64,000 nucleotides of DNA from IMG/VR virus record IMGVR_UViG_3300030099_005086, positions 46,740 to 110,739 of that record; one strand, given 5' to 3'. Shown in pieces: positions 1,837-47,260 of this stretch (its first letter is position 1; the number at the start of each line of letters is the position of its first letter). The notes under the pieces are model-generated. The model did no database searches. It worked only from the letters and a program-made list of their open reading frames with translations, and was not told the origin of the DNA. A program made the translations under genes and the position numbers. The stretch comes from a virus.

Positions 1837-4800
1837 TTATAATATTTCTATGTCAGCACCAGCTTTCATTAATTCTTCTAACATTGCTTCATCTATATCT
1901 ACAACATCACCACCATCTTCAAATGTAACAGATGCACCTATTGTAGGTATCATACTTTTTGATGAAGGATTATACTGAGCATCTGTAAATAATCTTAAAT
2001 CAGTATTATCTATTGGTATTCTTGTTTGTGCACCTAACCCTAAGTTAAGACCTGAAGAATCACCATCTCCAAATTTATAACTAGCAGAAGGTATAAAACT
2101 AAATTGTGACCCCCTTCTACCCATATCAAATCCTAAGTTACCTCTTACTCCAACTGAACCTCTAGCATGTAGCTCAGGATCTTCTTTAAGATTAGGATTT
2201 AAATCAACACCAAGTTTGCCTTTTGCAAAAAGATCTGCACTTATTCTACCTGATCTATTAAATGCATCTAATAAATTCAAATTTGCATCAGCACCTACAA
2301 ATGGTATTAATGAATCTGAATCTTTTGTTACACCTAGTCTACTCATTATAGAACCCATGTCAGTGCTTGCTACTTTATTTCTTTGTTGTAATGTAAACTC
2401 ATTATCTCCATCTTTGTTTTTTACATTAAAACCTATTTGTTTTCTTTGTCTATATCTACAATCACGTGGATTAGCTGCACAATATGCTTCTTGCTCTTCT
2501 GCACTCATACTTTCAAAACCTTCATCAGCAATTCTTTGATCTGTAGTTATAGTAGGCATTTGTGATTTCATAAGCTCTTGTGTTGCAAGATCAATAAGTG
2601 AGCCTTGATTAAAAGTATTATAATAAGACTTATTGTAAGACTGTTTAGGATACTTAGATGTATAATCACCCATACTAAAGTTAGTATCACCAACATCTAA
2701 TTTTGTTGCTTGTTGTGCAAACATATCCATTATTGAGTTTGATTCAGTACCATCTTGTGCCATTTTACTTATTGTTTTATCATCAGTTCTAAATAAACCA
2801 GTATTAACATCATAATCACCACGGTCATCTGCAAATGTACTACCAAATATATTTTGAGCATCTGCTAATTGTAATTCTGACTCAGCATCTGCTCTATCTC
2901 TTTGTCTTTGTTCTAATAATTTATTTAAAACTTTTGCACCTTCTACAGCAACTTTAGATCCTTTTTCAAAATTTTGAAAACCTTTACTGTCTCTAAACTG
3001 ATTAAATCTATTATATATTTGATCACCTAATGTATCACCATAAGATGTTTCAACTGTAGCTTGTGGTTCTTCTACAGATGGTTCTTCTACATCCTCTTCA
3101 GATTCAAACATTGACATATCCATTTCAGGTGGACCCATTTGTGCACTTTCAACAACACTTACTCCTGTACCAGTACCTGCATCTACATCTATAGTATCTG
3201 GAATACCGTCACCATCTCTATCATTTTTACCAAAAGTTGGATCAAAAAATTCAAACTCAGTACCACCTTGAGCTTTAGCTAATTGTGTATTAGATGGAGT
3301 ATTACCATATACAATTTTAAATTTATCTCCTTTTTTAAGAAGCATCATAAAATCATATTCTTTTTTATCTGATGTAACTTTAGTACCAATCTTATCAAAA
3401 CCTCTTCTTTTATATCTTAATGGTAATGATCCAGATTCATCCATTAACTTTAATTCTCTTGGAGTTAAAAATGCAGTTTCTTCTGTTATAACGTCTTCAC
3501 CACCTCCTTGCATTTCTACCATATCTGCAAAATTCATAGGCATATAATCTGTCATCATATCAGAATACATTATACCACCTCCAACTTTTTTCTTTAACTC
3601 TTTTGTAAAAAAATCTTTACCAGTTAAAAATCCACCATACCTAATATTTTCAAGTTCTTCTTCAGTAGCTATTCTTGTTCTTTGTTGAATATCCGTAGGA
3701 TTACTTCTATCATAAGGATTAACTGCTAAATCTGGTTTATCACCTGTACCAACATTATATATTGTAGCTGATACTTTACTAGGATCTTCATTTTTTATAC
3801 CTATATATTGTGCACCAGGTTGAGCTGATTCTGCTATATCACCAGGTAAAAGAGCACCTGTCTCTGAATCATAATAAGTATTACCTTGTTCATCTACAGT
3901 AACTGGAGAAAATAAATTAGGAGCCATTTGACTTCTTTGTTTATAAAAATCTCTTTTTAAAACATTCTCAGTTTGTTGTCTATTTAAAAGTTGTTTATTA
4001 TCAAAAGGATTAATATACATAGTTTCGTCCGTAGGATTACTATATGTAGTCTTTTGATATTTTTCAGGACTGTTATCTTGAATATAACTTGATGGATTAA
4101 ATTCTTTAATAACATTCTGTGCAAAGTTTGCTACATCAAGCAAAGGACTATCCAATCCTTCATATATATTAGTAAATGCAGGACCTTCATCATTTACATT
4201 TATATCATATGCTCCTGATTCTTTTAGTTTAGAAATAGCTTCTTCTCTACTCATACCAGTAGACATAAACAATTGTATTGCTTGATCTCTTTGTTGTCTT
4301 TTACTAGGATCTACATTTTGTGTTACATCTTCAGAAACATTTTGATTAGATGTATTATCTGTAGTATTATCTACTGTATTATCTGTTGTTGCATCTTCTG
4401 AAGCATCATCTGAAGTATCATTAGATTGTGCAGGTGGAACAAAACTAGTACCATTCCATACAAAGTTACCTTGTTCACCTTCTTTTTGCATTTGAGTAAA
4501 ACCAATTCTAGCATAATAAGCATTTATAGTTTCACCTTCATTTGGTGGTTCATTACCAACATTAGTATTAAGGTTTATACTTTCACCAGCATCTTGATAT
4601 TTTATTAAACTTCCACCATCTTCAAATTCAGGAAAAGTAAAATTATCTAATGCTTTTTTATAGTCAGTATTAAATTTTTCTATATCATAAACAGAATCAC
4701 TTTCTTTATTAAAGTTTTTATTTACATCTAAATTTAATATTTTATAAACATAGTTTCTACTTTCTTCAGGTACTCTTGCATCCTCTAACCAATCAAGATT

Positions 4801-5346
4801 ATTATATATATCAGTATCATCTTTAATTGTTTCTAAAAGTTTTTTAGTATTACCTACACCATAATTATAACCTATTAATGCTTTAGCTAATTGAACTTCT
4901 GATGTACCTTTTGCTAAATATGGTCTATCTTGTATCCAATCAAAATATTTTTTTGCTGCAGGAATAGCTTGATTAGCATCAAATACATCAAAACTTTTAT
5001 CAGTAAAACCTAATCTTCTTAACTCTCCTAATGTATCAGGCATAAATTGTGCTATACCTTTTGCACCTACCTTAGATTTAGCTTTAGGATTAAAGTTTGA
5101 TTCAGCATATATTAATCTTTTAAATATCTCATTTGGATCATATTGTGTAGATTCTTCAACTAAAGGTTTATTATCAAGCATAAATCCTTTTGTTTTATCT
5201 ATAGAAAGTTCTTTACCTGTTTGTGCACAAGAAGAAGGACAGTACATACTAGGTTGATAGACATAACCACCACCTACAGGAAATATAAAGTTATCTCCTC
5301 CATGTTTATAAACTTCTAAAGTTTTGTTATTTGATTTCAAATTCAT
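1837..5346 (-). CDS. Modular virion cargo protein with an N-terminal SLT lytic transglycosylase domain
   Basis: SLT motifs AESNFNPKAKS, GAKGIAQFMP, YNYGVGN and ESRNYV. Also a DRDGDGIPD Ca-binding-like loop and C-terminal amphipathic beta-strands. Lies in the cargo cluster downstream of the muzzle gene. Confidence 0.8.
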   Translation of the reverse strand: MNLKSNNKTLEVYKHGGDNFIFPVGGGYVYQPSMYCPSSCAQTGKELSIDKTKGFMLDNKPLVEESTQYDPNEIFKRLIYAESNFNPKAKSKVGAKGIAQFMPDTLGELRRLGFTDKSFDVFDANQAIPAAKKYFDWIQDRPYLAKGTSEVQLAKALIGYNYGVGNTKKLLETIKDDTDIYNNLDWLEDARVPEESRNYVYKILNLDVNKNFNKESDSVYDIEKFNTDYKKALDNFTFPEFEDGGSLIKYQDAGESINLNTNVGNEPPNEGETINAYYARIGFTQMQKEGEQGNFVWNGTSFVPPAQSNDTSDDASEDATTDNTVDNTTDNTSNQNVSEDVTQNVDPSKRQQRDQAIQLFMSTGMSREEAISKLKESGAYDINVNDEGPAFTNIYEGLDSPLLDVANFAQNVIKEFNPSSYIQDNSPEKYQKTTYSNPTDETMYINPFDNKQLLNRQQTENVLKRDFYKQRSQMAPNLFSPVTVDEQGNTYYDSETGALLPGDIAESAQPGAQYIGIKNEDPSKVSATIYNVGTGDKPDLAVNPYDRSNPTDIQQRTRIATEEELENIRYGGFLTGKDFFTKELKKKVGGGIMYSDMMTDYMPMNFADMVEMQGGGEDVITEETAFLTPRELKLMDESGSLPLRYKRRGFDKIGTKVTSDKKEYDFMMLLKKGDKFKIVYGNTPSNTQLAKAQGGTEFEFFDPTFGKNDRDGDGIPDTIDVDAGTGTGVSVVESAQMGPPEMDMSMFESEEDVEEPSVEEPQATVETSYGDTLGDQIYNRFNQFRDSKGFQNFEKGSKVAVEGAKVLNKLLEQRQRDRADAESELQLADAQNIFGSTFADDRGDYDVNTGLFRTDDKTISKMAQDGTESNSIMDMFAQQATKLDVGDTNFSMGDYTSKYPKQSYNKSYYNTFNQGSLIDLATQELMKSQMPTITTDQRIADEGFESMSAEEQEAYCAANPRDCRYRQRKQIGFNVKNKDGDNEFTLQQRNKVASTDMGSIMSRLGVTKDSDSLIPFVGADANLNLLDAFNRSGRISADLFAKGKLGVDLNPNLKEDPELHARGSVGVRGNLGFDMGRRGSQFSFIPSASYKFGDGDSSGLNLGLGAQTRIPIDNTDLRLFTDAQYNPSSKSMIPTIGASVTFEDGGDVVDIDEAMLEELMKAGADIEIL

Positions 5347-5388: not shown

Positions 5389-7113
5389 CTATCTAATATA
5401 TCCTAGTTCTTTAAGATATTGTTTACCTGCACTAGATATATTCTCTCCTCCTTTAAATTTCTTAATTAGTTCTAAAGTTTTTTGATTTTTATTTTTTCTT
5501 AATTCAACACCAACTTTTTTCTCAGCTAATTTGTTATCTACTTTTCTAAATATTTGAAATGGTGGTTTTTCTTTACCTTGCTCATCCTTATAAATGTTAG
5601 TTTTAGTTAAAGGATTATTTTCATCAGGATCACTAATGTACATTTCATCTCCTACATATACACCTATGTGAAAAGGATAATCACCCATTGCTTCTATCTC
5701 AATATCATTAAAAAGTGTTTCTACAGTAAAAGCATCTCTAGCTGGAAAATAATATTGTAATATATCTCCTCTTTGTAAATCATTAGGATCTTCTATAAGT
5801 TCATATCCATAACTCTTATAATTTTCAAAAAAGGTTCTATTATCATATACATCATCAGGAATGTTTGATTCTATATCAGCTTCTTTATATATATCCTTAA
5901 CAGCTTGAACACAAGTATTATCAAAGTAACAATTTGTTGCAGGAAATAATGTACTAATCAGTCTTTCTTTTTTACCAGCAGGACCTCTAGTTATATCAGT
6001 TTTTTCTTCATATAATTTTTCTGCAGCATCAGCAATTTGTTCACCAGTAAAATTTGTGTTAATTCTCCTATCTGTAGGTAAACCATCATAAAACTTTTTT
6101 AAATCTTCATTAGCACCTGGATACATTTCAGGTACACCAGTTACTCTAAGTGTGTTAACATACTCAATAACTTCTGGATTTGTTACTTTACCTTCAACTA
6201 TATCTTGTTCTAATTTTGAAGCATCTGCATAACTATTAAGTATTTCCATTGCTTCATTAGACATTTGATTTGTTGAGTCACCTCCAAATTGTTTTATAGA
6301 ACCCTTTGGATTTTTTAAATATACATTCTCTAAAGCATCTGCATCAGTTTGCACATATCCATCTGGCATAAGATTATTATCTGAAAGAAAAGTTAATATA
6401 TTAGTTTTCTTCTCAGGACTCATATCTGTTGAACCTATAACTGATCCAATAAGATTATTAATTACATCTTCTCCACTTTCTTGTAGAGCTGCTAAGATAG
6501 GTCTATTATCTTCAAGCAATGTAGTAGCTTCATGACCTATTCCAAGAAGATTTGAACCAAGAAATCCTGCAAGTTTATCTACTCCTATTTTATCTAGAAA
6601 TCCACCTACTTTAGGAATATCTTTTATTTTATTTTGTATTTCTTCAGCAGCAAATCTACCTGCCATAGAATGTCTTAAATTATCAATATTTGCTAATTGC
6701 TCTTCACTATCAGAAAAATCTTTTGCTCTTTGACCTGGATTATTTAAATAAGTACCAATGTTATCTTGTAAATCTAATAACTTTTCAGATAAATATGATA
6801 TAGTATTTTCTTCTTCAGATAACTCTTCACCAACTTGTGCCATTGGTATTTCAAAAACCATATTACCTGGAAAAATATAATCAGCACCTGGCATCATTAT
6901 TTTACTATTACCTAAATTATCTATACCTAATACAGAGAAATCAACATCTTCCATAGTTATATTACCAGTAGGTATAATATTAAAATCATTATTTACATCA
7001 GGACTATCAGACTTATATCCTTGCATGCTTATAGAACCTTCTATTATGCTTACCTGTTCATTTGGTCCACCTGGTAAACCTTTACGCGTCTTTTTGTAAA
7101 ATGATTTTTTCAT
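5389..7113 (-). CDS. Modular virion protein with a C-terminal NlpC/P60-like peptidoglycan peptidase
   Basis: NTCVQAVKDIY (Cys), DLQRGDIL and FHIGVYVGD (His) match the NlpC/P60 pattern. The middle module has a D..RH...G..HE...D..NN..G pattern. Confidence 0.65.
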   Translation of the reverse strand: MKKSFYKKTRKGLPGGPNEQVSIIEGSISMQGYKSDSPDVNNDFNIIPTGNITMEDVDFSVLGIDNLGNSKIMMPGADYIFPGNMVFEIPMAQVGEELSEEENTISYLSEKLLDLQDNIGTYLNNPGQRAKDFSDSEEQLANIDNLRHSMAGRFAAEEIQNKIKDIPKVGGFLDKIGVDKLAGFLGSNLLGIGHEATTLLEDNRPILAALQESGEDVINNLIGSVIGSTDMSPEKKTNILTFLSDNNLMPDGYVQTDADALENVYLKNPKGSIKQFGGDSTNQMSNEAMEILNSYADASKLEQDIVEGKVTNPEVIEYVNTLRVTGVPEMYPGANEDLKKFYDGLPTDRRINTNFTGEQIADAAEKLYEEKTDITRGPAGKKERLISTLFPATNCYFDNTCVQAVKDIYKEADIESNIPDDVYDNRTFFENYKSYGYELIEDPNDLQRGDILQYYFPARDAFTVETLFNDIEIEAMGDYPFHIGVYVGDEMYISDPDENNPLTKTNIYKDEQGKEKPPFQIFRKVDNKLAEKKVGVELRKNKNQKTLELIKKFKGGENISSAGKQYLKELGYIR

Positions 7114-10100
7114 TATCTAAATGATAAATTTAATTTAGTATTACTTATTTTTAATAACATCTTGGTATTACCTGAGCGAGTTCTTCTAAATATAATATTA
7201 TTTTGATAATGTCTAAACTTCTTATGCTCTAATTCAAGTTTATTATAATTTAAATTAACAGCATTAAGATCTTTAACATAACCGTTTAGTCTTGTTATAA
7301 ATATTGAATTTTCTGTATTTGTAAACTCACCTCTATCATTTGTAATATCCCAAAACTGATTAAATCTATACTTCTGTTCTTCTTTAGAATATAAAATTTG
7401 TATATCAGCAAGACCAATAATAGGATATGTAGTTAACAAAGGTGCATTATTTTTAGGAGATATATTAAGTTTTAATAAACCTGATACTTGCTCTGAGTTA
7501 TATATAATAGCTTCATCAAAATTAAAATCTAATCTATGGAATCTATCAGAACCATTAAATGGATCAGAAGGATGAAAGTTTTTATATACATATGATTCTA
7601 ATTCATACTCTATACTTCTAACTGTGTTTACATTAATACCTGTAGATTCTATCAAATCTATTTCCCATGGGTAGTCTTCATCATAAAAATTTACAAATAA
7701 ATCATTTCTATCATTATGTTTCCAAATACCTGTAGATAACCCTGCTTCTAGAGGTATAATATCACTTGGGTTATTAATATTTCTACATGCAGGTGTACCA
7801 TCTGCTAAAGATATTGGAGTATAACCTGGCGGACATTCCCAAATATCACCCTCTACTATACTAGGTGGTGCTATTCTATTACCTTCTTTTGTAGTTAAGA
7901 AATGATCAATACTATTAAATGTTAAATCAGGATGCCAATCATGGAATGATACCCAAGATTTAGTTTTAGGATCAAAACTTACAGTCCATGATACATCATC
8001 AAAATAAGTACTATCAGTTAAATCTATTGGTATAACTTGATCAACTTTTTCTGGATCTACTGTTTCTAAATATTCACATATATCATCACCACTTGGTAAT
8101 GTTATAAGTGTTCCACCTTCACCACAAACTAATTCAAAACTTTCAACTAATCTTTGACAGTCAGGACATTCTTCTGAAAAAGGTGGTGTAGTTACAGTAG
8201 CATATCCTGGTGGACAAACAAATCTTGCTGCATTTTGAAATGCTTGACCTGTATCACTTCTAAATATATCATTTAATTCTTCTAAATTATTAGAATCTAT
8301 TAACTCTTGTTCTGTATTATTAAATAGAGCACATGCAAAAGCACCAGGAGTGCTATTATCATTAGCAACAGCTCTAATCTTAGTACAACCTATAGGTAAA
8401 TTAATTCTATATATAAATGCTCTTTGATATGGAACACTATCATCACCATATTGCATTGTGTAATTAGAACATCCACCATCAGGACATATAGGCTCTAAGT
8501 TATTTTCAATATAACCAGCAGTACCAAACATTGTTCCTGCACCTGTAGCTCCATTTGGATCAACATTTACAACTGTATTAAAACCAGCACCATTAATATC
8601 TGTTGATAATGTAAAACTATTATCTCCAGCTAAAAGAACATATAAAGGTAAAGTTCCTGGAAAATTAGGATCTGAGTTAAAATTTGGTTCATTACCATCT
8701 ATAGTAACTGCAAAATTATATTGTAAAGAAGCAACTGAATTTCCTAAATTATCAAAAGCCCATACAGATAACTGATTTACAACACCAGTTTGACCACCAG
8801 GTGCAGGCATATCAACCCACCATCCATTTCCATATCCTGATGGTGATGCAGTACATGATTGATGATTAGTATTATTAGCACCATTAATCATTTTTACATC
8901 CTGAATATTTGTAGAAACATTACCTGCTGCATCAACAGGTACACCATTTCCATTATATCTATTAATAATTAATGGACAATCTTTTCCATATCTCCAAACT
9001 TGCTGTCTTTGTACTACAAGAGGATTACCTACTTGTTGAGCTAATACAACTTCCGTATCTAATACTTGTACACTAAATGCTTCATCTTGAAAAGTTCTCT
9101 CACAAAGACCTGTTGCATTATTAAAAGTAAATCCATCAGGACATTCACTTATTTGTGCTGCTCCTTCACATTCTGTTATATTATATACAAAACCTAACTC
9201 AGGATCAAATTCAATACATTCTTTAAGTTCTGATTTAGGTATATAATCTTTTTTACAGAAATAAACAATATCATTATTAATATCATAAACTGTTTGACAA
9301 CCTGCAGCATTAACTGGATTATCACTATACTCTGGATAATCTTCTATACCAGGAAATGATTGTAATAATTTAGATGGTAAATATTTATTAAACCAGTTCT
9401 TCATTCCAAAGTTTGCAATATTAACTAAACTTCTACCATCATATTGGAATATCTTACCTTGCTCTTGTGATATATAGAATACACCACTAGGAGTATTAAG
9501 AACACTTCTTGAGCTTTCACAAGATCCATATTCATGTGATACATCAGAGTTAACAACGTTCTTTAAGTTTTTCATATTAAATAACTCTCCATCACCAAGT
9601 GTTATCTTTGTACCTAAATCAGTTGTAACTAAATCAACACCTCTAAACTGCATTGGTGATAATCTAGGGAATAAAATTAATGCACCATATTCAGAAATAG
9701 GTTTGATAGTATTTACTCTATCTTTAAAGTCATTATAGTTTAATGGTAAGAAAACTCTCCAGAAATCTCTTTTAGATTCTTTCTGTGCTTGTAAAGAATA
9801 GATAAGTCTTTTAGGATAATATGTATAACAAGTTTCTGCTACTTCAGGATTATAATCACGTGGTTGTATTTCACCAAAAGAAATTAGTTTAGTAAAGAAT
9901 CTGTCAATACTTAATGATGGATCATACTTATAAAAGTTACCCATCTTTATTATGTCAGCATGAAATAATTGTTTTACATCTGTATATGTAGCATAATCAT
10001 AAAATCTTTTTTCTGGCGGATCTTCAAAGTCTCTAAAATCAAGATTCATACTAGACTCTACAAAAAAATCATTTATACCACTACAGTGTGTATACATGTA

Positions 10101-13100
10101 TGCATTACCTAATACAAATAAACCTCCTGGTACGTTTCCACTAGTAGGAACATTTTGCTGACCTTGAAAACCAAAATTTCCCCCTTGTTGTGGGCCTTGT
10201 TGACCACCTATATCATTACCAAAACCTGAAGCACCACCAACATTAAATGTTGAAACAGGATCTCTATCTAAATGCCAATAATCATTAGGTAGTGCAGTAG
10301 AAAAATTAAAGTTAAGATTCATGAGAGGTTTAACCATTTCATCTAATCTATACTTATTTGTATCCATCCAGAATCTAGGAAAAGGTATATTACTTTTTAA
10401 TCTGTAATCATAACCTATCATATCTGGCTCTCCTTTTAAGAAGTCATACCAGAAAGGCATAATAGATTTTTCAGTATATCTATTTATATAAGTATCACCA
10501 CCAAATAAAACTCCTGTAGTAAACTCAGTTAAAGTACTTACAGTAGTCATATCTATAGGTTGATATACATCATTCTCATCTCTATAAAATTGATCTCTAA
10601 AATGTTGCACACAACCTTTAATAGGTATTTGTCTTATTGAATCTAATTGACCATATTGATTATCAAAGTTTATTTTTAGTGCAGCATAATTAGTTGAAAT
10701 AGGACTCTGCACTGGTGTACTAGGATTAGACCAACCTCCAAAATTTCCTATTATAAACTTAGAACCATCAGCTCCTACAGCTGGATTAGATGTTACAGGA
10801 TTCTGTGTAATTAATGCAACTGTAGCTGGTCTAAATAAATTTTGATATGTTACCGTATTACCAGCAGTTGAATCAAATAAAGATGAAATACTATTCTTAA
10901 TATATCTTGATGCATCAACATTATATCTTACTGTATTTGCTATAGCTCCACCACTATCTACAGCAGGATTATAAGTATTAAAAGATCTATAAAAACCATG
11001 AGAGTTATATTTATAAGCATACACTCTAGGTTTACTTAAGTTATAAATAAGATCAACAATTTCTTGACCTCCAGTAGCTGTAAAATTTAAAAACGTATAT
11101 AAACCTGATATAATTTGAAATGCATTTGGCATTGATCCAAATCTACTTCCTGTTAATTCTACAGTAGAGCTTGGACCTAATGCACCTGGAACTGCAGCCC
11201 AAGAACCATTTGCAGCTGCTGACCATGTTGGATATGCAATATCAAATGCTGCACCATCACCACCCAATGGAGCAACAAGACTTAAACCAGATCTAAGTGT
11301 AGTAGTAGCACCAGTTTCAGCAGCATCTGCTGTTGCTGCAAGTCCTGCATTAGCACCAATTCCTGGTGCTTGACCACCTCCAATAGCAGCAGGATTAATA
11401 GGAGCTTCACCACCTGTAACGTTAGTATTAATATTACCAGAAGTACCTGATGTTCCATTTCCTCCTACTAAAACTCCCTGTACCAAAGTATTAACCTCAG
11501 ATCCACCAGCTATACCTCGTTGACCTAGAGATAATATTTTACCACCATCAATTTTTCTATTTGTTGATCCACGCATAGAATGAAATGCATATCCTACACC
11601 TATAAATAATGCAACTAATGCTGCAATGTTTCTTAATAAAATATGTCCTGGATGTTCTTCTGAAGGTATAAACTGTCCACTTGAAGTTCCTGAAATATTA
11701 CCATATATTTTAACTTCTGAAGGATTTAAATAAATATCATTAAACATTGTTTCAGGAGAATGAAATGTATGATACCTAGCTGTTTGATCTATAGTCAAAC
11801 CTGGAGTTGTATTAAAATCTGGACCATTAGGACTATTTCCTGGAAATCCTGTTGGTCCAACTTGACCTAAAAAGTTTGTTGCAGCAGCTCCTGATGTAAG
11901 ATAAGGATCTACTTGTCTATCATTATAAGGATAATTAGGTAATACATTTACAGTAGAACCCTCAGATCCACCACCATCTTGAGGTGTATAACCTATGGTA
12001 TCTTTCATAATACCTTTAGCAATAATAGATTTATTACCTTCTCTTGATCCTGTTAAGATTTCATAACCTACTATATTTGGTATAAGATTATTATCATTAT
12101 CTCTTGGCCAAGCAATATCCATAAACCTAACCCCTAGTATATTTATAAATCTACCATCAGGTGTTGATAGCTGTGTTGATGGACTTATACTTTCATCTGG
12201 AAACTTATGATGTCTAATAGGTTTACCACATAAATCAAAATCATCTATACCAACATTAGAATTCCATCTTTCTGGATCTTGTGGATATAGTTCTGTAGAT
12301 TCCCAATATCCCATATGACCACGTCCTATTATAACTCCACCATCATCTATACTTGCTTGAGCTTGTGGGTCTTGTGGAAGTGAACCTACATTAAATGCAT
12401 CAGCTGTATTATATACTTTAAATAATTGATCAGTTGTATCTAGAGCATTTATATCACCACCTATGACAGTATCAAAAGTTGGTGCTGCTAATGGATTACT
12501 ATTAAATCCAACTAATGCTTCATTTCTTCTACCTGGTATATGATAAGATGCAGACCTTTCTCCTGTATTATATATAAATCTTATAAAGAATGCATAAACC
12601 TCATCTCTCATAAATGTAGGTTTATTACCGCCTTTCTTATAATAATCTGCTGGATATTGAACAGAAACCCAATGAGTGTGTATTCTATTAGCAAGAGGTT
12701 GATAATTAAAATCAAACTGTTCTGTAGGTTCAGATCTAATTAAATAATCATTTACTACAAACATTCTGCTAGATTTTTCATAAGCAGGATTTCTAGCAGG
12801 AAGATCTCCTAAATTAACAGCTTGTAATTTTTGATTTATAAAGTCAACTTTAATAGTCATAGGTAAACTAGTATCACCAATACTATAATAACCTAAACGT
12901 CTTGCTGACGTTTCCATATTTACATTGCTTACTATAACAATTTCAAAAAAATCAAATTGAGAATCTAAATTACTTATATCTATAATTAAAGAACTACTTG
13001 TATCCTCATGTGTCCATAATGATTGTACATTGGATATACCATAGTAATCACCAATCTTTTGATCATTTACTGTATATGCAATAAAAACTTGATATGAACC

Positions 13101-13745
13101 ATTTCTTAATGAACCAGCTTCAGGAGCTTTACTTAACTTAACACAAGGTACATCAATAAGTGGTGCTAATCTGATTCTTTCACAATCTAATTGTAAAGGT
13201 GTTACAGGAGCAAACTCTACACATGGATCACCTGGTGCAGAAACAATTTCTTGTACATATGGAATATTATCTAAGTTAATTGTACGTGATGGATTTAAAC
13301 CATCATCAAAATATATCTGATAAGAACAATCATAATTTTCTTTTGCAGCACCTGTAATTAAATGATCTGTACTAAAACTTAAACAAGCATCTACTATTAA
13401 ACTTGTATAAATACATTCACTTTCATTAAATCTACCAATGTGAGATAAAAGTCCATCTACACTAAATATAATCCATTCATCACCATATAAATGTATTGCA
13501 CCTATAACAATACCTGGTACATCTGCACATTTATAATTAGCAGGTTCATTACCTACTGTACCTATATTACCTTCAGTAGAATGATTAACAAGATTTATAG
13601 CATGATTCCAAGTTTGCTTATTATGATAAAGACCATCAGTATCTTTTACCATACCTTTGGTTACCATAGATGATTCAACAGAAGATGTATTCTGTTGTTT
13701 TGCTGCTCCTGGTCTAGATTGTTTAGCTTTTCTTTTTTTAGCCAT
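7113..13745 (-). CDS. Tail stabilization/muzzle protein (P22 gp10-like, crAss-type)
   Basis: 2210 aa. Motifs FMRDEVYAFFIRF, IRHHKFP, FHSPE, GGDTYI and WTVSFDPKTKSWVSFHDWHP are typical of crAss-like muzzle proteins. Lies directly after the ring-protein genes. Confidence 0.8.
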   Translation of the reverse strand: MAKKRKAKQSRPGAAKQQNTSSVESSMVTKGMVKDTDGLYHNKQTWNHAINLVNHSTEGNIGTVGNEPANYKCADVPGIVIGAIHLYGDEWIIFSVDGLLSHIGRFNESECIYTSLIVDACLSFSTDHLITGAAKENYDCSYQIYFDDGLNPSRTINLDNIPYVQEIVSAPGDPCVEFAPVTPLQLDCERIRLAPLIDVPCVKLSKAPEAGSLRNGSYQVFIAYTVNDQKIGDYYGISNVQSLWTHEDTSSSLIIDISNLDSQFDFFEIVIVSNVNMETSARRLGYYSIGDTSLPMTIKVDFINQKLQAVNLGDLPARNPAYEKSSRMFVVNDYLIRSEPTEQFDFNYQPLANRIHTHWVSVQYPADYYKKGGNKPTFMRDEVYAFFIRFIYNTGERSASYHIPGRRNEALVGFNSNPLAAPTFDTVIGGDINALDTTDQLFKVYNTADAFNVGSLPQDPQAQASIDDGGVIIGRGHMGYWESTELYPQDPERWNSNVGIDDFDLCGKPIRHHKFPDESISPSTQLSTPDGRFINILGVRFMDIAWPRDNDNNLIPNIVGYEILTGSREGNKSIIAKGIMKDTIGYTPQDGGGSEGSTVNVLPNYPYNDRQVDPYLTSGAAATNFLGQVGPTGFPGNSPNGPDFNTTPGLTIDQTARYHTFHSPETMFNDIYLNPSEVKIYGNISGTSSGQFIPSEEHPGHILLRNIAALVALFIGVGYAFHSMRGSTNRKIDGGKILSLGQRGIAGGSEVNTLVQGVLVGGNGTSGTSGNINTNVTGGEAPINPAAIGGGQAPGIGANAGLAATADAAETGATTTLRSGLSLVAPLGGDGAAFDIAYPTWSAAANGSWAAVPGALGPSSTVELTGSRFGSMPNAFQIISGLYTFLNFTATGGQEIVDLIYNLSKPRVYAYKYNSHGFYRSFNTYNPAVDSGGAIANTVRYNVDASRYIKNSISSLFDSTAGNTVTYQNLFRPATVALITQNPVTSNPAVGADGSKFIIGNFGGWSNPSTPVQSPISTNYAALKINFDNQYGQLDSIRQIPIKGCVQHFRDQFYRDENDVYQPIDMTTVSTLTEFTTGVLFGGDTYINRYTEKSIMPFWYDFLKGEPDMIGYDYRLKSNIPFPRFWMDTNKYRLDEMVKPLMNLNFNFSTALPNDYWHLDRDPVSTFNVGGASGFGNDIGGQQGPQQGGNFGFQGQQNVPTSGNVPGGLFVLGNAYMYTHCSGINDFFVESSMNLDFRDFEDPPEKRFYDYATYTDVKQLFHADIIKMGNFYKYDPSLSIDRFFTKLISFGEIQPRDYNPEVAETCYTYYPKRLIYSLQAQKESKRDFWRVFLPLNYNDFKDRVNTIKPISEYGALILFPRLSPMQFRGVDLVTTDLGTKITLGDGELFNMKNLKNVVNSDVSHEYGSCESSRSVLNTPSGVFYISQEQGKIFQYDGRSLVNIANFGMKNWFNKYLPSKLLQSFPGIEDYPEYSDNPVNAAGCQTVYDINNDIVYFCKKDYIPKSELKECIEFDPELGFVYNITECEGAAQISECPDGFTFNNATGLCERTFQDEAFSVQVLDTEVVLAQQVGNPLVVQRQQVWRYGKDCPLIINRYNGNGVPVDAAGNVSTNIQDVKMINGANNTNHQSCTASPSGYGNGWWVDMPAPGGQTGVVNQLSVWAFDNLGNSVASLQYNFAVTIDGNEPNFNSDPNFPGTLPLYVLLAGDNSFTLSTDINGAGFNTVVNVDPNGATGAGTMFGTAGYIENNLEPICPDGGCSNYTMQYGDDSVPYQRAFIYRINLPIGCTKIRAVANDNSTPGAFACALFNNTEQELIDSNNLEELNDIFRSDTGQAFQNAARFVCPPGYATVTTPPFSEECPDCQRLVESFELVCGEGGTLITLPSGDDICEYLETVDPEKVDQVIPIDLTDSTYFDDVSWTVSFDPKTKSWVSFHDWHPDLTFNSIDHFLTTKEGNRIAPPSIVEGDIWECPPGYTPISLADGTPACRNINNPSDIIPLEAGLSTGIWKHNDRNDLFVNFYDEDYPWEIDLIESTGINVNTVRSIEYELESYVYKNFHPSDPFNGSDRFHRLDFNFDEAIIYNSEQVSGLLKLNISPKNNAPLLTTYPIIGLADIQILYSKEEQKYRFNQFWDITNDRGEFTNTENSIFITRLNGYVKDLNAVNLNYNKLELEHKKFRHYQNNIIFRRTRSGNTKMLLKISNTKLNLSFR

Positions 13746-13755
13746 AATTTAGATA

Positions 13756-14670
13756 CTAATAAATATTTACAGGTGGATGACTTCTAAACATATCATAATA
13801 CTTATTATATTCTGCTCTTCTACTAACTTCATAGAACTTTCTCATTTCTTCAAAGTTTGGGGTATTAACAAAACCTAAAGCATTGTTTCTAGCTGCTCTT
13901 AATCTTCCTTCTATTAATCCTAATTGTTGAGATACATTTTCTCCAGCAAATAACATATTTTCTAATATTCTTTGTTTAAGAGCATACTCATAATATTCAT
14001 TACAATAAGGATGATCTAATACTAATAAATCACCAGCAGAATCTTCCATAGTAGCTTGATAACTCATATATACTGTGCCTGTTGTAAAAGTAGTTAATAA
14101 GTATCCATCTTTTATCTCTGCTTGATTATGAGATGTTGTATTTAAATTAGGACAATCACAATCAACATGACTTGTTTCTGTAATGCGTAAAGGATAAAAT
14201 CTTGTATATGTTCTATACTGAGTAGGACTATATTTTTGCACAACCATATACTCTGATTTAAATGTTACACGTCCTTTACGGTCTTCTTCAGGACAAGTTT
14301 TTATTGTACATACATCTTTACACTCTGGATCTTCACATGGTCCTTGCTCTCCTGGTGCAGGAGTATATTTAGCTTGAGTAGTATCTATATGTGTACCACT
14401 AGGAAAAGCTTGAGATACTTGATAATCATCACAAACAAAAGCATAATTTAATGTATAAAAATCTGAAGGTAATTGACCTTTACCATGTTCAACATCTACT
14501 ATTACCTCTTTAGTTCTATTTATTCTTAACCCTAAATCATAGTTAACCCTTATAGCTACCTTTATTAATTGTTGAGGTTCTACCATACCCTCTAAAGCAT
14601 ATGATTGAAAATCAACAGTTACATCTTCTAGAAGTTGATCAAATGTTCTATATTTATGTGATACACTCAT
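13756..14670 (-). CDS. Tail tubular/ring protein (P22 gp4-like)
   Basis: Motifs VEHGKGQLPSDFY and GTVYMSY...DHPYCNEYYEYALK; syntenic position before the muzzle in crAss-like phages. Confidence 0.7.
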   Translation of the reverse strand: MSVSHKYRTFDQLLEDVTVDFQSYALEGMVEPQQLIKVAIRVNYDLGLRINRTKEVIVDVEHGKGQLPSDFYTLNYAFVCDDYQVSQAFPSGTHIDTTQAKYTPAPGEQGPCEDPECKDVCTIKTCPEEDRKGRVTFKSEYMVVQKYSPTQYRTYTRFYPLRITETSHVDCDCPNLNTTSHNQAEIKDGYLLTTFTTGTVYMSYQATMEDSAGDLLVLDHPYCNEYYEYALKQRILENMLFAGENVSQQLGLIEGRLRAARNNALGFVNTPNFEEMRKFYEVSRRAEYNKYYDMFRSHPPVNIY

Positions 14671-45600: not shown

Positions 45601-47260
45601 TATCTAGAAAATTAACTTTACTAGAAACTGCATCAGTTTTTCCTCCAGGTAATACTTTAATTTCTCCATCAATATATTTTCTATTAGGACTATAATGACC
45701 ATATGTTGTATTCCAGTTATCAATAAATGTTTGAGCTTTTTTAGGATCTTCTTCAATTAATTTTACAAGTTCTTTATCAGATTGTGGAACACCTAGTCTT
45801 TTTGCTCTATTAAATTGATAACCAGCTTTTACAGCCATGTCTGCTTCTCCTATCTCATTAATTTTTTTTAATTGTTGAAATAACATTTCATCTTGTAACG
45901 CTAGTTTACCAGTACTTCTAAAACCTATAAAAGGATTAATAGCTAGATCTAATGCTCCTGCTTTACTAAATAAGTTTGGAGAAAAAGTTCTAGCACCAAG
46001 AAGAAAATCTATAGGTGACATACTAAGTTCTGCTCCCGCAGGCATATCAGGATTAATTGTACCATCTGGAAGTATTTCACTACTTTCTATAGCTTTATCA
46101 AAATATCTTTGTGTTGCATCCCTTTCAAGTTGATTTATATATTCATCAAACCTAAGCTGTTCTTCTGGTGTAAGATTAGATTGTTGTGGTACAGTTATCT
46201 TTGGTGTTTCTCTACCATCCTGAGCTCTCATACTACCTTCAGGTAAATCATCTGCAATCTCTGGATCAAATGCAACATTGTTCATTTGCCATACTATGTC
46301 TTCTTTGTTAAATAATTGTAACATTCTATCAGCAACTGAAAATCCTTTTTCATCTTTACCTTTTTGATTAAAGACTCCCTCTTGCTCTAAAAGTTTATTT
46401 AGATCATCCATAGTAAATGGTCTTGTATCTTCTGCTTTATAAATATTAAATTTATCTGCTAAATATCTTAAGGCCATTACATCAGAACGTCTTTCATGGG
46501 GACTACGATCATGTGCTAGTATTGCTTGTCTTTCTTTATTTATCCAGTCTTCTTTAGCATCTTCAAGAGAATTATAACCCATATCTTCCACAACAGCAAC
46601 AAAACTATTATAACCTTCTCTATTTGGATTAGTTTGTTCTTGCCATCTTTTTTCTACTGCTTCATCTAAATTTTTATTGTATTTATCTGTACCTACTTTT
46701 GATCTAGAGGCTAATTCATTTTGAATGCTCTTTGGCATATACATACCGTGCATATCATGAGTATAAGTATAGAAGTCATCAATACTCATATCTTGAATAT
46801 TTAACATATGACCATATTCATGTGCTAGTATTGCTTCTTGAAGTGTTGGATTATTTTCTGCATCTGCAACTGTAGGATCAAATCTGATACTTCTATCACT
46901 TGGTTCATAATCTGATAAAAAACTAAGTAAGCTCATACCTGGATCAAACATAGAATCAAAAAATCCTTTATCTGTTCTATCAACCATACTATGACCTGCA
47001 AATGCTGCAGCTACACCATAAGGTCCCATATCTACTTGTAATCCTGGACCACGACTAAAACCTTCACGTTCATTGGCTATATATTGTCTATACAAACCAC
47101 GTTTAGGATCAATAGGATAATTACCTTCTTCTATTAGCCGTTTATAGTTATCACTAGTTACATACCTTTTGTAAAAGTCATCAACTCTTGACATAATCTC
47201 ATCAAAAGGTACTGCAGAAGATTCACCTGCATTTTGCTTTTTTTTCAACTTTCTCATCAA
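42692..47260 (-). CDS. Polyvalent protein: two zincin (HExxH) modules flanking an ADP-ribosyltransferase-like module
   Basis: AHEYGH (46808-46822) and THELDH (44606-44620), each with a downstream Glu. LYRYG...GWFSAD...VYKIDI...KEFDVP lies between them. Confidence 0.65.
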   Translation of the reverse strand: MMRKLKKKQNAGESSAVPFDEIMSRVDDFYKRYVTSDNYKRLIEEGNYPIDPKRGLYRQYIANEREGFSRGPGLQVDMGPYGVAAAFAGHSMVDRTDKGFFDSMFDPGMSLLSFLSDYEPSDRSIRFDPTVADAENNPTLQEAILAHEYGHMLNIQDMSIDDFYTYTHDMHGMYMPKSIQNELASRSKVGTDKYNKNLDEAVEKRWQEQTNPNREGYNSFVAVVEDMGYNSLEDAKEDWINKERQAILAHDRSPHERRSDVMALRYLADKFNIYKAEDTRPFTMDDLNKLLEQEGVFNQKGKDEKGFSVADRMLQLFNKEDIVWQMNNVAFDPEIADDLPEGSMRAQDGRETPKITVPQQSNLTPEEQLRFDEYINQLERDATQRYFDKAIESSEILPDGTINPDMPAGAELSMSPIDFLLGARTFSPNLFSKAGALDLAINPFIGFRSTGKLALQDEMLFQQLKKINEIGEADMAVKAGYQFNRAKRLGVPQSDKELVKLIEEDPKKAQTFIDNWNTTYGHYSPNRKYIDGEIKVLPGGKTDAVSSKVNFLDNVKLNVAKDAESGLDYFHARSRLPGVEAENIQSYVNKLGDDGTTTLYRYGDSPFNYGDKTSGWFSADPFDPLRYADYRSDLLNYKGNVYKIDIDNKFLNEIYRGGPQQGSKFRAGTSFKEFDVPDGLIYLSNVEEIGNLSDYKKYLKTLKQNGGSLPTFQGTDGSNEVTTENVTADNLKQTIESGNFDISQEQKELETHYRSAPERERLRKEHLNATGETLTDTQLDDIVNKNVELIYSTGSKVKGSTQQAPGFTYDPNVAGVLAFVNYQEGTFPLQLNDPDKQTGVYLNPDTPKDPLGLSYTQLPYYNIDGDVIKPKETLLKGTITHELDHLSNNMGIMGSGKYSPNYQQFKDYYNTFFTNASKENPYSPDYEGDKAETEYYTMPQEVKSYKRNLESALQDAGIWNPEEGEFTQEHLNLLNERGFEMPDAPLLEAINPSTEIPKKDENPYTFGDSNISYLDRINEFLVGTNPEQQAIDRVRNKLGSNPRTQKKVKEWLSNEPVQDINAEIAYKLFGSKGTKDINPYNAMQKLGESNNYNAGAYEDWLAERGITKRSEEELAELKRNQPNKYHSPYSDEMYDKFVNEVFPTIDRNAYVNYDKERDEWNDSAPKGFGNTPDTALSTFMQKIGSKTIKQRNKFLKRFNKDNDTDYKTFYELANKEGYTAHSRDNLPDERNPGLITEIQNDFMNVTRKKFTGINSNRNYDPAAFISDQKNIARLIPGNTHFNNQDISENASYDDGKSLQFLEEQGFNLNPNKLREDAFNNLPEYQRKALEWFANIGEDGNIVPRELNSATIRKSKFKDNYIDLGDDAAPDYIISSISHAINNIQSYIANEIDSQKRLFEGNNRIEQNRIDQKFNIEKEKYKEQQKKIDNNVIKFMNEVAMDEQEQSLTLAKNGGAIEQEIIYKNGKPEFKIIFANGAELKINKEEYDKEINPFYKVSKRKASKGLEFGSPLIIRGKLKLLKK

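Follow-up and report, generated by a model that had tools for sequence, protein, structure and literature searches.

The stretch of DNA considered here (the window) covers positions 46,740 to 110,739 of the IMG/VR virus record IMGVR_UViG_3300030099_005086. The record is a complete phage genome of 110,739 bp with direct terminal repeats, and the 64,000 nucleotides of the window are its right-hand 64 kb; the G+C content of the DNA is about 30%. The minus strand carries, in this order, the gene for a tail ring protein, the gene for a muzzle protein of 2210 amino acids (aa), an open reading frame (ORF) of 574 aa and an ORF of 1169 aa, and this order is the layout of a crAss-like phage. Our subject is a region near the end of the 1169-aa protein, where residues ~940-1146 would constitute a swappable cassette, made up of a short helix with a pair of cysteines and eight (possibly ten) antiparallel strands of the type found in outer-membrane protein (OMP) barrels. 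The coordinates of the features are collected in Table 1.

Table 1. Features of the 1169-aa protein and its gene neighborhood (positions are those of the window)
Feature	Position	Strand	Basis
Putative cargo/ejection protein P0001, 1169 aa	1837..5346	-	Only long ORF at the locus; second gene downstream of the muzzle gene, same strand
SLT lytic transglycosylase domain, residues 67-173	4828..5148	-	Pfam PF01464, E 1.4e-15, 57.3 bits against a cut-off of 21.3
First FEDGG, residues 241-245, just after the SLT domain	4612..4626	-	Six-frame motif scan
Acidic helix with invariant Cys pair, residues 944-963, opening the putative cassette	2458..2517	-	Helical in both models
Beta module, eight candidate strands, residues 998-1142	1921..2355	-	AlphaFold and dyad pattern
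Last strand, beta-signal-like T-I-G-A-S-V-T-F	1921..1956	-	P1134, G1137 and F1142 invariant in the two-family alignment
Second FEDGG, residues 1142-1146, closing the putative cassette	1909..1923	-	Six-frame scan; F-E-x-G-G-D form kept in the distant family
Acidic amphipathic C-terminal helix, residues 1147-1169	1840..1908	-	Helical in the model
Muzzle protein gene, 2210 aa (context)	7113..13745	-	Pfam PF25731 crAss_MUZ, E 1.6e-26
Tail ring protein 1 gene (context)	13756..14670	-	Pfam PF24228, E 9.4e-10

The 1169-aa protein is probably a cargo or ejection protein carried in the virion. The catalytic E-S motif and the downstream SLT motifs of its transglycosylase domain can be read in the translation. 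The protein matches PHROG 342, "internal virion protein with endolysin domain" (E 5.9e-12), and its tblastn matches include "internal (core) protein D", so that both searches link the SLT part to T7-type proteins. The SLT domain and the location in the gene block after the muzzle gene make a cargo or ejection role plausible, and to this extent the preliminary description of the locus, which placed the beta module inside a phage cargo protein together with a transglycosylase, is borne out. The protein has no hydrophobic helix, the highest 19-residue Kyte-Doolittle mean being 0.77.

All seven strand sequences quoted in the preliminary description are present in the minus-strand translation of 1837-5346, at residues 1014-1142. 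The interval given there, 1909-2440, corresponds to residues ~970-1146 and can be retained with two corrections, namely that the coding strand is the minus strand and that the phenylalanine ending the last strand (F1142) is internal, with 27 residues between it and the C-terminus. Eight candidate strands can be drawn, at residues 998-1007, 1013-1026, 1034-1049, 1063-1075, 1080-1092, 1099-1112, 1115-1126 and 1131-1142. The last six are predicted by AlphaFold, while for the first two the dyad pattern (the alternation of hydrophobic and polar faces) is the only basis; a hairpin at residues 971-990 is also possible and would raise the strand count from eight to ten.

The dyad pattern was scored with a strict criterion, which accepts an 11-residue window when at least 5 of 6 positions on one face are hydrophobic, with no charge on that face, and no more than one bulky hydrophobic residue is found on the other. 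Six non-overlapping windows of this kind lie within residues 1013-1142, a count that was never reached when these 130 residues were shuffled 20,000 times (mean 0.85, maximum 4), and the stretch has the highest dyad score among all ORFs of the genome. The amphipathic periodicity of the module is thus beyond chance. The runner-up in the genome is a run at residues ~631-770 of an ORF outside the window (G000:C1:13854-17093, minus strand), with 5 strands per 130 residues.

Further properties of the module concern its faces, turns and composition. The hydrophobic face of the six best strands, read from the sequence, has 30 hydrophobic residues among 39 and none that is charged, whereas the 36 positions of the opposite face include 9 glycines, 7 serines and 10 charged residues. 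The strands are connected by turns of 4 and 2 residues on one side and by loops of 13, 7 and 4 residues on the other, and their ends carry aromatic residues. Glycine makes up 12.3% of the module, compared to 6.1% genome-wide. The strands of an OMP barrel are even in number, at least eight, antiparallel and amphipathic, each of roughly 10-14 residues with the dyad alternation, and the module has six such strands in the model and two more from the pattern. These data support the assignment of residues ~998-1142 to an all-beta module of long, dyad-amphipathic strands.

Relatives of the module were sought in several sequence collections. A HMMER pass over 1.84 billion protein representatives yielded three clusters, word-index searches recovered close relatives only, and scans of IMG/VR with the module and with its distant relative P0005 gave no matches. 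On the strength of these searches the module appears to be rare, being confined to two small groups of marine crAss-like phages. One is the query's own family (P0002, L002 and L003, which are 93-97% identical), and the other (P0005-P0008, L004 and L005) is 28% identical and derives from metagenomes of marine origin, of which one is from TARA. The protein of this second family is 1576-1628 aa long and carries the module at residues ~620-850; its gene directly follows the muzzle gene (L004, L005), and ~750 residues lie downstream of the module in the same protein. Pairwise comparison of the two families' proteins reveals only the module in common, and this sharing by two otherwise differing proteins argues that the module acts as a cassette. 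A calcium-binding-like sequence, D-x-D-G-D-G-I-P-D, is also found in both cargo proteins, at residues 709-717 of the query (~3196-3222, minus strand) and 1281-1289 of P0005 (E 0.029).

The borders of the cassette coincide with GG motifs. In L004 these are E-E-G-G-D before the module and F-E-H-G-G-D after it, and the query has a degenerate D-E-G-F before and F-E-D-G-G-D after. A helix like that of residues 1147-1169 follows the module in L004. In L005 (10580-10648, compared with L004:4450-4592) this post-module helix of ~30 residues is missing, and the deletion extends exactly from GGD to GGD. The deletion argues that the helix is dispensable for the module and, from its endpoints, that the GG motifs are junctions between cassettes.

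Conservation between the families follows the proposed strands. At 28% identity the dyad register is kept, with hydrophobic residues of the distant family in 23 of 38 hydrophobic-face columns compared to 4 of 33 polar-face columns, and its hydrophobic-face columns again have no charge. The invariant columns are mostly glycines, plus P1134, G1137 and F1142 of the last strand. The stretch best conserved between the families is the helix at residues 944-963, where the ratio of nonsynonymous to synonymous substitution rates (dN/dS) among close relatives is 0-0.11. Its cysteines (Y-C-A-A-N-P-x-x-C) are invariant in the 28%-identical family, and this pair, C956 and C963, could form a disulfide or a metal site fitting an extracytoplasmic location. 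Cysteines are otherwise scarce in the 1169-aa protein, which has just four, in two close pairs (residues 36/40 and 956/963). For the module, dN/dS among the three close relatives is 0.25-0.59 and for the rest of the gene 0.36-0.46, with counts too small to separate the two.

The last strand ends in G-x-x-V-x-F (G1137, V1140, F1142), as the preliminary description had stated, and the same phenylalanine begins FEDGG. The claim that this is a signal of the type recognized by the beta-barrel assembly machinery (BAM) holds as a motif match, and the strand fits the pattern polar-x-G-x-x-hydrophobic-x-aromatic in both families, but the motif carries little information. The pattern is common, with 35 matches in the 35,783 residues of the genome (0.98 per 1000), and the 1169-aa protein itself has six matches where ~1.15 are expected, four of them outside the module. 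These four, at residues 15, 243, 587 and 693, each sit directly on a GG motif, and the GG motifs may be the tight turns of short beta hairpins. F1142 doubles as the first residue of a recurring F/Y-x-x-GG motif, and the distant homolog has many copies of this motif at places with no beta module. In its wider form, F/Y/W/M-x(1-2)-GG, the motif occurs 5 times in the 1169-aa protein as against 1.75 expected, with no clear enrichment in the genome's other large ORFs. FEDGG itself has just two sites in the six-frame translation of the window, both in this protein.

The preliminary description further proposed that processing near FEDGG could free the C-terminus of the barrel. Nothing was found in favor of this step. 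For cleavage at the GG motifs no protease was identified and no processed form is in evidence, and a cut after the GG of FEDGG would leave four residues beyond the phenylalanine. The step is also unneeded, since the last barrel strand of E. coli OmpA likewise ends in phenylalanine and is internal, being followed by G-Q-G-E and then by the whole periplasmic domain. The internal position of the last strand is for the same reason no argument against a barrel.

Evidence on the fold comes from two AlphaFold2 models. In the first (model 1, built from a 7-row alignment) the mean predicted local distance difference test (pLDDT) score is 44.9, and six strands of 11-14 residues appear at pLDDT 50-63; the second (model 2, of the distant family) has a mean pLDDT of 32.7. 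Neighbors of these models were ranked by exhaustive VIA-align, a tool which itself notes that models without a clear match typically top out at Z 7-8. The best neighbor of model 1 is the BrkA beta-domain (Z 12.0, root-mean-square deviation 2.1 A over 102 residues, 15% identity), followed by TamA, PgaA, Omp33, KdgM, NanC, AIDA-I, Sam50 and BamA, and transmembrane barrels account for 22 of the top 24 rows. The neighbors of model 2 are the designed barrel TMB10 (Z 8.8, 122 of 143 residues), the OmpA transmembrane domain (8.8), NspA (8.5), BrkA (8.2) and OprF (8.1). Sequence searches of the PDB gave no relevant match. The models lend weak support to a long-stranded up-and-down meander or barrel that is most like OMPs. 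The OMP-like module of the preliminary description is thereby upheld in its dyad-amphipathic strands and in the nearest folds of the two models, while its closed barrel with a lipid-facing surface is not, at pLDDT values of 45 and 33.

A setting in which such a module might act is described for another crassvirus, PhiCrAss001, where the genes for the cargo proteins gp45 (C1) and gp46 (C2) are found directly downstream of the muzzle gene (PMC10172136). These proteins are housed inside capsid and tail and are thought to be ejected first, partly unfolded, and to build a trans-envelope channel; gp45 has a predicted transmembrane helix and is helical in its resolved parts, gp46 is predicted to be helical, and crassvirus cargo proteins are present in 6-12 copies (PMC10172136). 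Compared by description, the 1169-aa protein has the same post-muzzle position as gp45 and gp46, and differs in having no hydrophobic helix and, instead, an SLT domain and a beta cassette; no likeness in sequence to either protein came to light, though none was looked for directly. The ejection proteins of podoviruses (T7 gp14/gp15/gp16, P22 gp7, DEV gp73) are likewise carried in the virion and breach the envelope, and those of the T7 gp16 type carry an SLT domain, as does the 1169-aa protein. The outer-membrane ejection proteins DEV gp73, T7 gp14 and P22 gp7 are helical (PMC11445570). In contrast to these helical pore proteins, the 1169-aa protein has a module that is all-beta and fused to an SLT-bearing polypeptide.

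The reading that we tentatively prefer, while putting its chances somewhat below even, is that the module is an outer-membrane anchor delivered by ejection. The 1169-aa protein would be packed in the virion and, like other crassvirus cargo, would exit through the tail at least partly unfolded, after which its SLT domain would cut peptidoglycan and the beta cassette would fold into the host outer membrane with no need for an energy source. OMP barrels need no energy source to pass from the unfolded state into their fold in the membrane, a property that would suit a protein threaded unfolded through a tail. Once inserted, the barrel would be a small anchor that tethers the enzyme and the ejection apparatus to the envelope, and not a conduit for DNA. 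The preliminary description had considered a part in the ejection channel, but DNA would not fit through a barrel with as few as 8-10 strands, and a channel role would therefore need oligomerization. What can be observed directly is the pattern in the sequence and its conservation, together with the SLT domain and the context of the gene; packaging in the virion, membrane insertion and any role of BAM are steps that we infer. A further version of the proposal would be that some marine crAss-like phages eject an OMP-type barrel of their own, without a signal peptide, as part of a cargo protein. In the host outer membrane this barrel would fold, possibly with the aid of host BAM acting through the conserved last strand, and would anchor the machinery that cuts peptidoglycan; this version we consider doubtful.

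A number of results weigh against an anchor of this kind. As to sequence, no curated OMP family (OmpA_membrane, OMP_b-brl, Autotransporter and similar) matched above its cut-off, the best Pfam match of the module being Autotransporter PF03797 at E 0.11 and 12.7 bits, where the cut-off is 26. That match probably reflects periodic composition, because it and the structural match are in different strand registers. NCBIfam gave no match for the module, and an hhalign comparison of the module with E. coli OmpA returned a probability of 1.9%. PF01389 is absent from the genome in a Pfam search. By its sequence, then, the module seems to resemble an OMP barrel and yet to belong to no OMP sequence family, and it cannot be filed as a member of one. 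The 1169-aa protein also has no signal peptide; its N-terminus is polar, and the module starts only near residue 940. Another candidate, a C-terminal sorting domain of the type IX secretion system, was dropped, with no match in Pfam or NCBIfam and with the signal peptide absent.

Further points against the anchor come from the models and from comparative data. The confidence of both models is low, and model 1 does not place the first two candidate strands. Of the checks that the preliminary description had suggested, AlphaFold gave six long strands at low pLDDT, and Foldseek gave no match to the PDB or BFVD at E 0.001 or below. For model 2, the scores of soluble up-and-down barrels come to within 1 Z unit of those of the membrane barrels (Rv2717c 8.0, streptavidin 7.2, nitrobindin 7.0). 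Covariation could not be used because there are only two small sequence families. At 80 other crAss-like muzzle loci (862 ORFs), no comparable module was detected by the strict dyad criterion, with a maximum of 4 strands, and none of the top regions is OMP-like in appearance. The criterion is insensitive, however, scoring ~4 for E. coli OmpA and 3 for the distant L004 module, and the scan is accordingly no proof that the module is absent elsewhere. Finally, there is no obvious way for a barrel with a hydrophobic surface to stay soluble in a capsid.

Several of these results would fit a soluble up-and-down beta-barrel or curved sheet, like those of avidin, lipocalin or nitrobindin, with a hydrophobic face that is turned inward or packed on another part of the virion; it would serve as a binding or docking domain in the capsid, tail or periplasm. 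Soluble barrels of 8-10 strands come within one Z unit of the OMPs for model 2, soluble DUF3224 proteins are among the neighbors of model 1 (Z 8.2-8.6), and the lack of both a signal peptide and an OMP family match is in keeping with such a domain. Dyad periodicity marks any sheet with one buried face, and another ORF of the genome reaches 5 strands. A compact domain of PhiCrAss001 gp45 does bind the portal inside the capsid, but that domain is described as helical. The polar face of the module, moreover, has glycine or serine at 16 of its 36 positions, an unusual richness that typifies the lumens of OMPs rather than surfaces exposed to solvent, and the strands of the module are 11-16 residues long with aromatics at the ends rather than in the middle. 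For model 1, BrkA stands ~2 Z units above the rest at Z 12.0, in a list where membrane barrels hold nearly all of the top rows. A soluble domain is in our judgment unlikely, if by no means far-fetched. The glycine content and the low pLDDT of both models would also be explained if the module had no fixed fold, and were a glycine-rich amphipathic segment that, in the manner of attacins and gloverins, disturbs the outer membrane or binds lipopolysaccharide, or simply a flexible spacer. The nearest named language-model clusters in the ESM Atlas are in fact Attacin_C and Gloverin (0.83-0.86), but scores below 0.9 there are leads only, none reached 0.9, and there is no Pfam match to Attacin_C. A dyad register conserved at 28% identity, and a module dN/dS (0.25-0.59) similar to that of the SLT domain, also argue against a stretch with no fixed fold, which we rate as quite improbable.

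Two other proposals accept insertion into the outer membrane and assign the module a different part. Several modules might join at their edges to make a large oligomeric beta pore and so provide the DNA ejection channel with its outer-membrane section, as the helical T7 gp14, P22 gp7 and DEV gp73 do elsewhere. Model 1 does not close on itself but is a curved, open sheet, which can be superposed on a portion of barrels with 12-16 strands; the lumen-type face is built of small residues, the copy number of crassvirus cargo proteins is 6-12, and known podoviruses need an outer-membrane pore protein. Model 2, on the other hand, matches small closed barrels over nearly the full length of those barrels (122 of 143 residues of the 10-strand designed barrel), and a monomeric barrel needs no more than the eight candidate strands, whose two ends lie on the same side. 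An oligomeric pore seems improbable to us. The remaining proposal, which is that of the preliminary description, is that the module is a genuine BAM substrate, with its last strand recognized in the periplasm by host BamA/BamD, possibly after cleavage at FEDGG. The fit of the last strand to the beta-signal pattern in both families, the invariant P, G and F, and the likeness to the internal last barrel strand of E. coli OmpA speak for recognition of this kind. The same pattern is common in the genome and occurs six times in the protein itself, however, and its phenylalanine is shared with the recurring F/Y-x-x-GG motif; cleavage at GG would leave four residues past it, with neither a protease nor a processed form in evidence, and in the distant family ~750 residues follow the module. 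Recognition by BAM along these lines is very improbable.

Turning back to the ejected anchor, its closest counterparts in structure are small OMP barrels and autotransporter beta-domains (BrkA 3qq2, OmpA, NspA 1p4t, TMB10 8uzl). These share with the module the long antiparallel meander strands, a charge-free hydrophobic face opposed to a Gly/Ser/polar face, turns that are short on one side, and the pattern G-x-x-hydrophobic-x-Phe in the last strand. Unlike them, the module is a signal-less part of a 1169-aa phage protein made in the cytoplasm, and it matches no OMP family. Among the viral models of BFVD, those closest to the module are of DUF680 and of cyanophage "outer membrane protein-like beta-barrel domain" proteins (Foldseek probability 0.93-1.00). 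They match at non-significant E-values of 0.008-0.03, with a TM-score of no more than 0.33 on the query, and they are free-standing proteins of ~110-175 aa, not cargo modules. The attacins and gloverins of insects (PF03769, PF10793) are glycine-rich, amphipathic and act on Gram-negative outer membranes; we know of no established fold for attacins. Their likeness to the module is in language-model features only, at values below the tool's trust level, and there is no sequence match.

Full-text literature searches found no paper that describes OMP-like barrels in crassvirus cargo. Three observations are new here: the cassette is fused to a protein with an SLT domain, its register is conserved across two families, and a variant exists with a GGD-to-GGD deletion. 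The host of a relative of this phage is probably a marine member of the Bacteroidota; for short-tailed phages of this group, the way across the outer membrane is to our knowledge not known. If the ejected anchor is real, it would be a new class of ejectosome component, in which a beta structure takes a step otherwise known only from helical phage proteins. It would also be a natural OMP-type domain that reaches the outer membrane without the Sec pathway, and, as a compact self-inserting barrel scaffold, it would be of interest for nanopore work. The module is a clean test case, with ~200 residues and defined borders, and can be expressed alone.

Two neighboring ORFs of the same strand deserve brief mention. 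The C-terminal third of the 574-aa ORF (5389-7113, minus strand) shows Cys and His in an arrangement (Cys...His) reminiscent of the NlpC/P60 or CHAP cell-wall peptidases, a likeness to which Pfam, PHROG function and PDB sequence matches add no support. Three genes further along the cargo block, outside the window, is a 5162-aa ORF (G000:C1:27087-42575, minus strand), whose translation contains 4 X residues from masked or ambiguous bases, and which is possibly a fused virion RNA polymerase.

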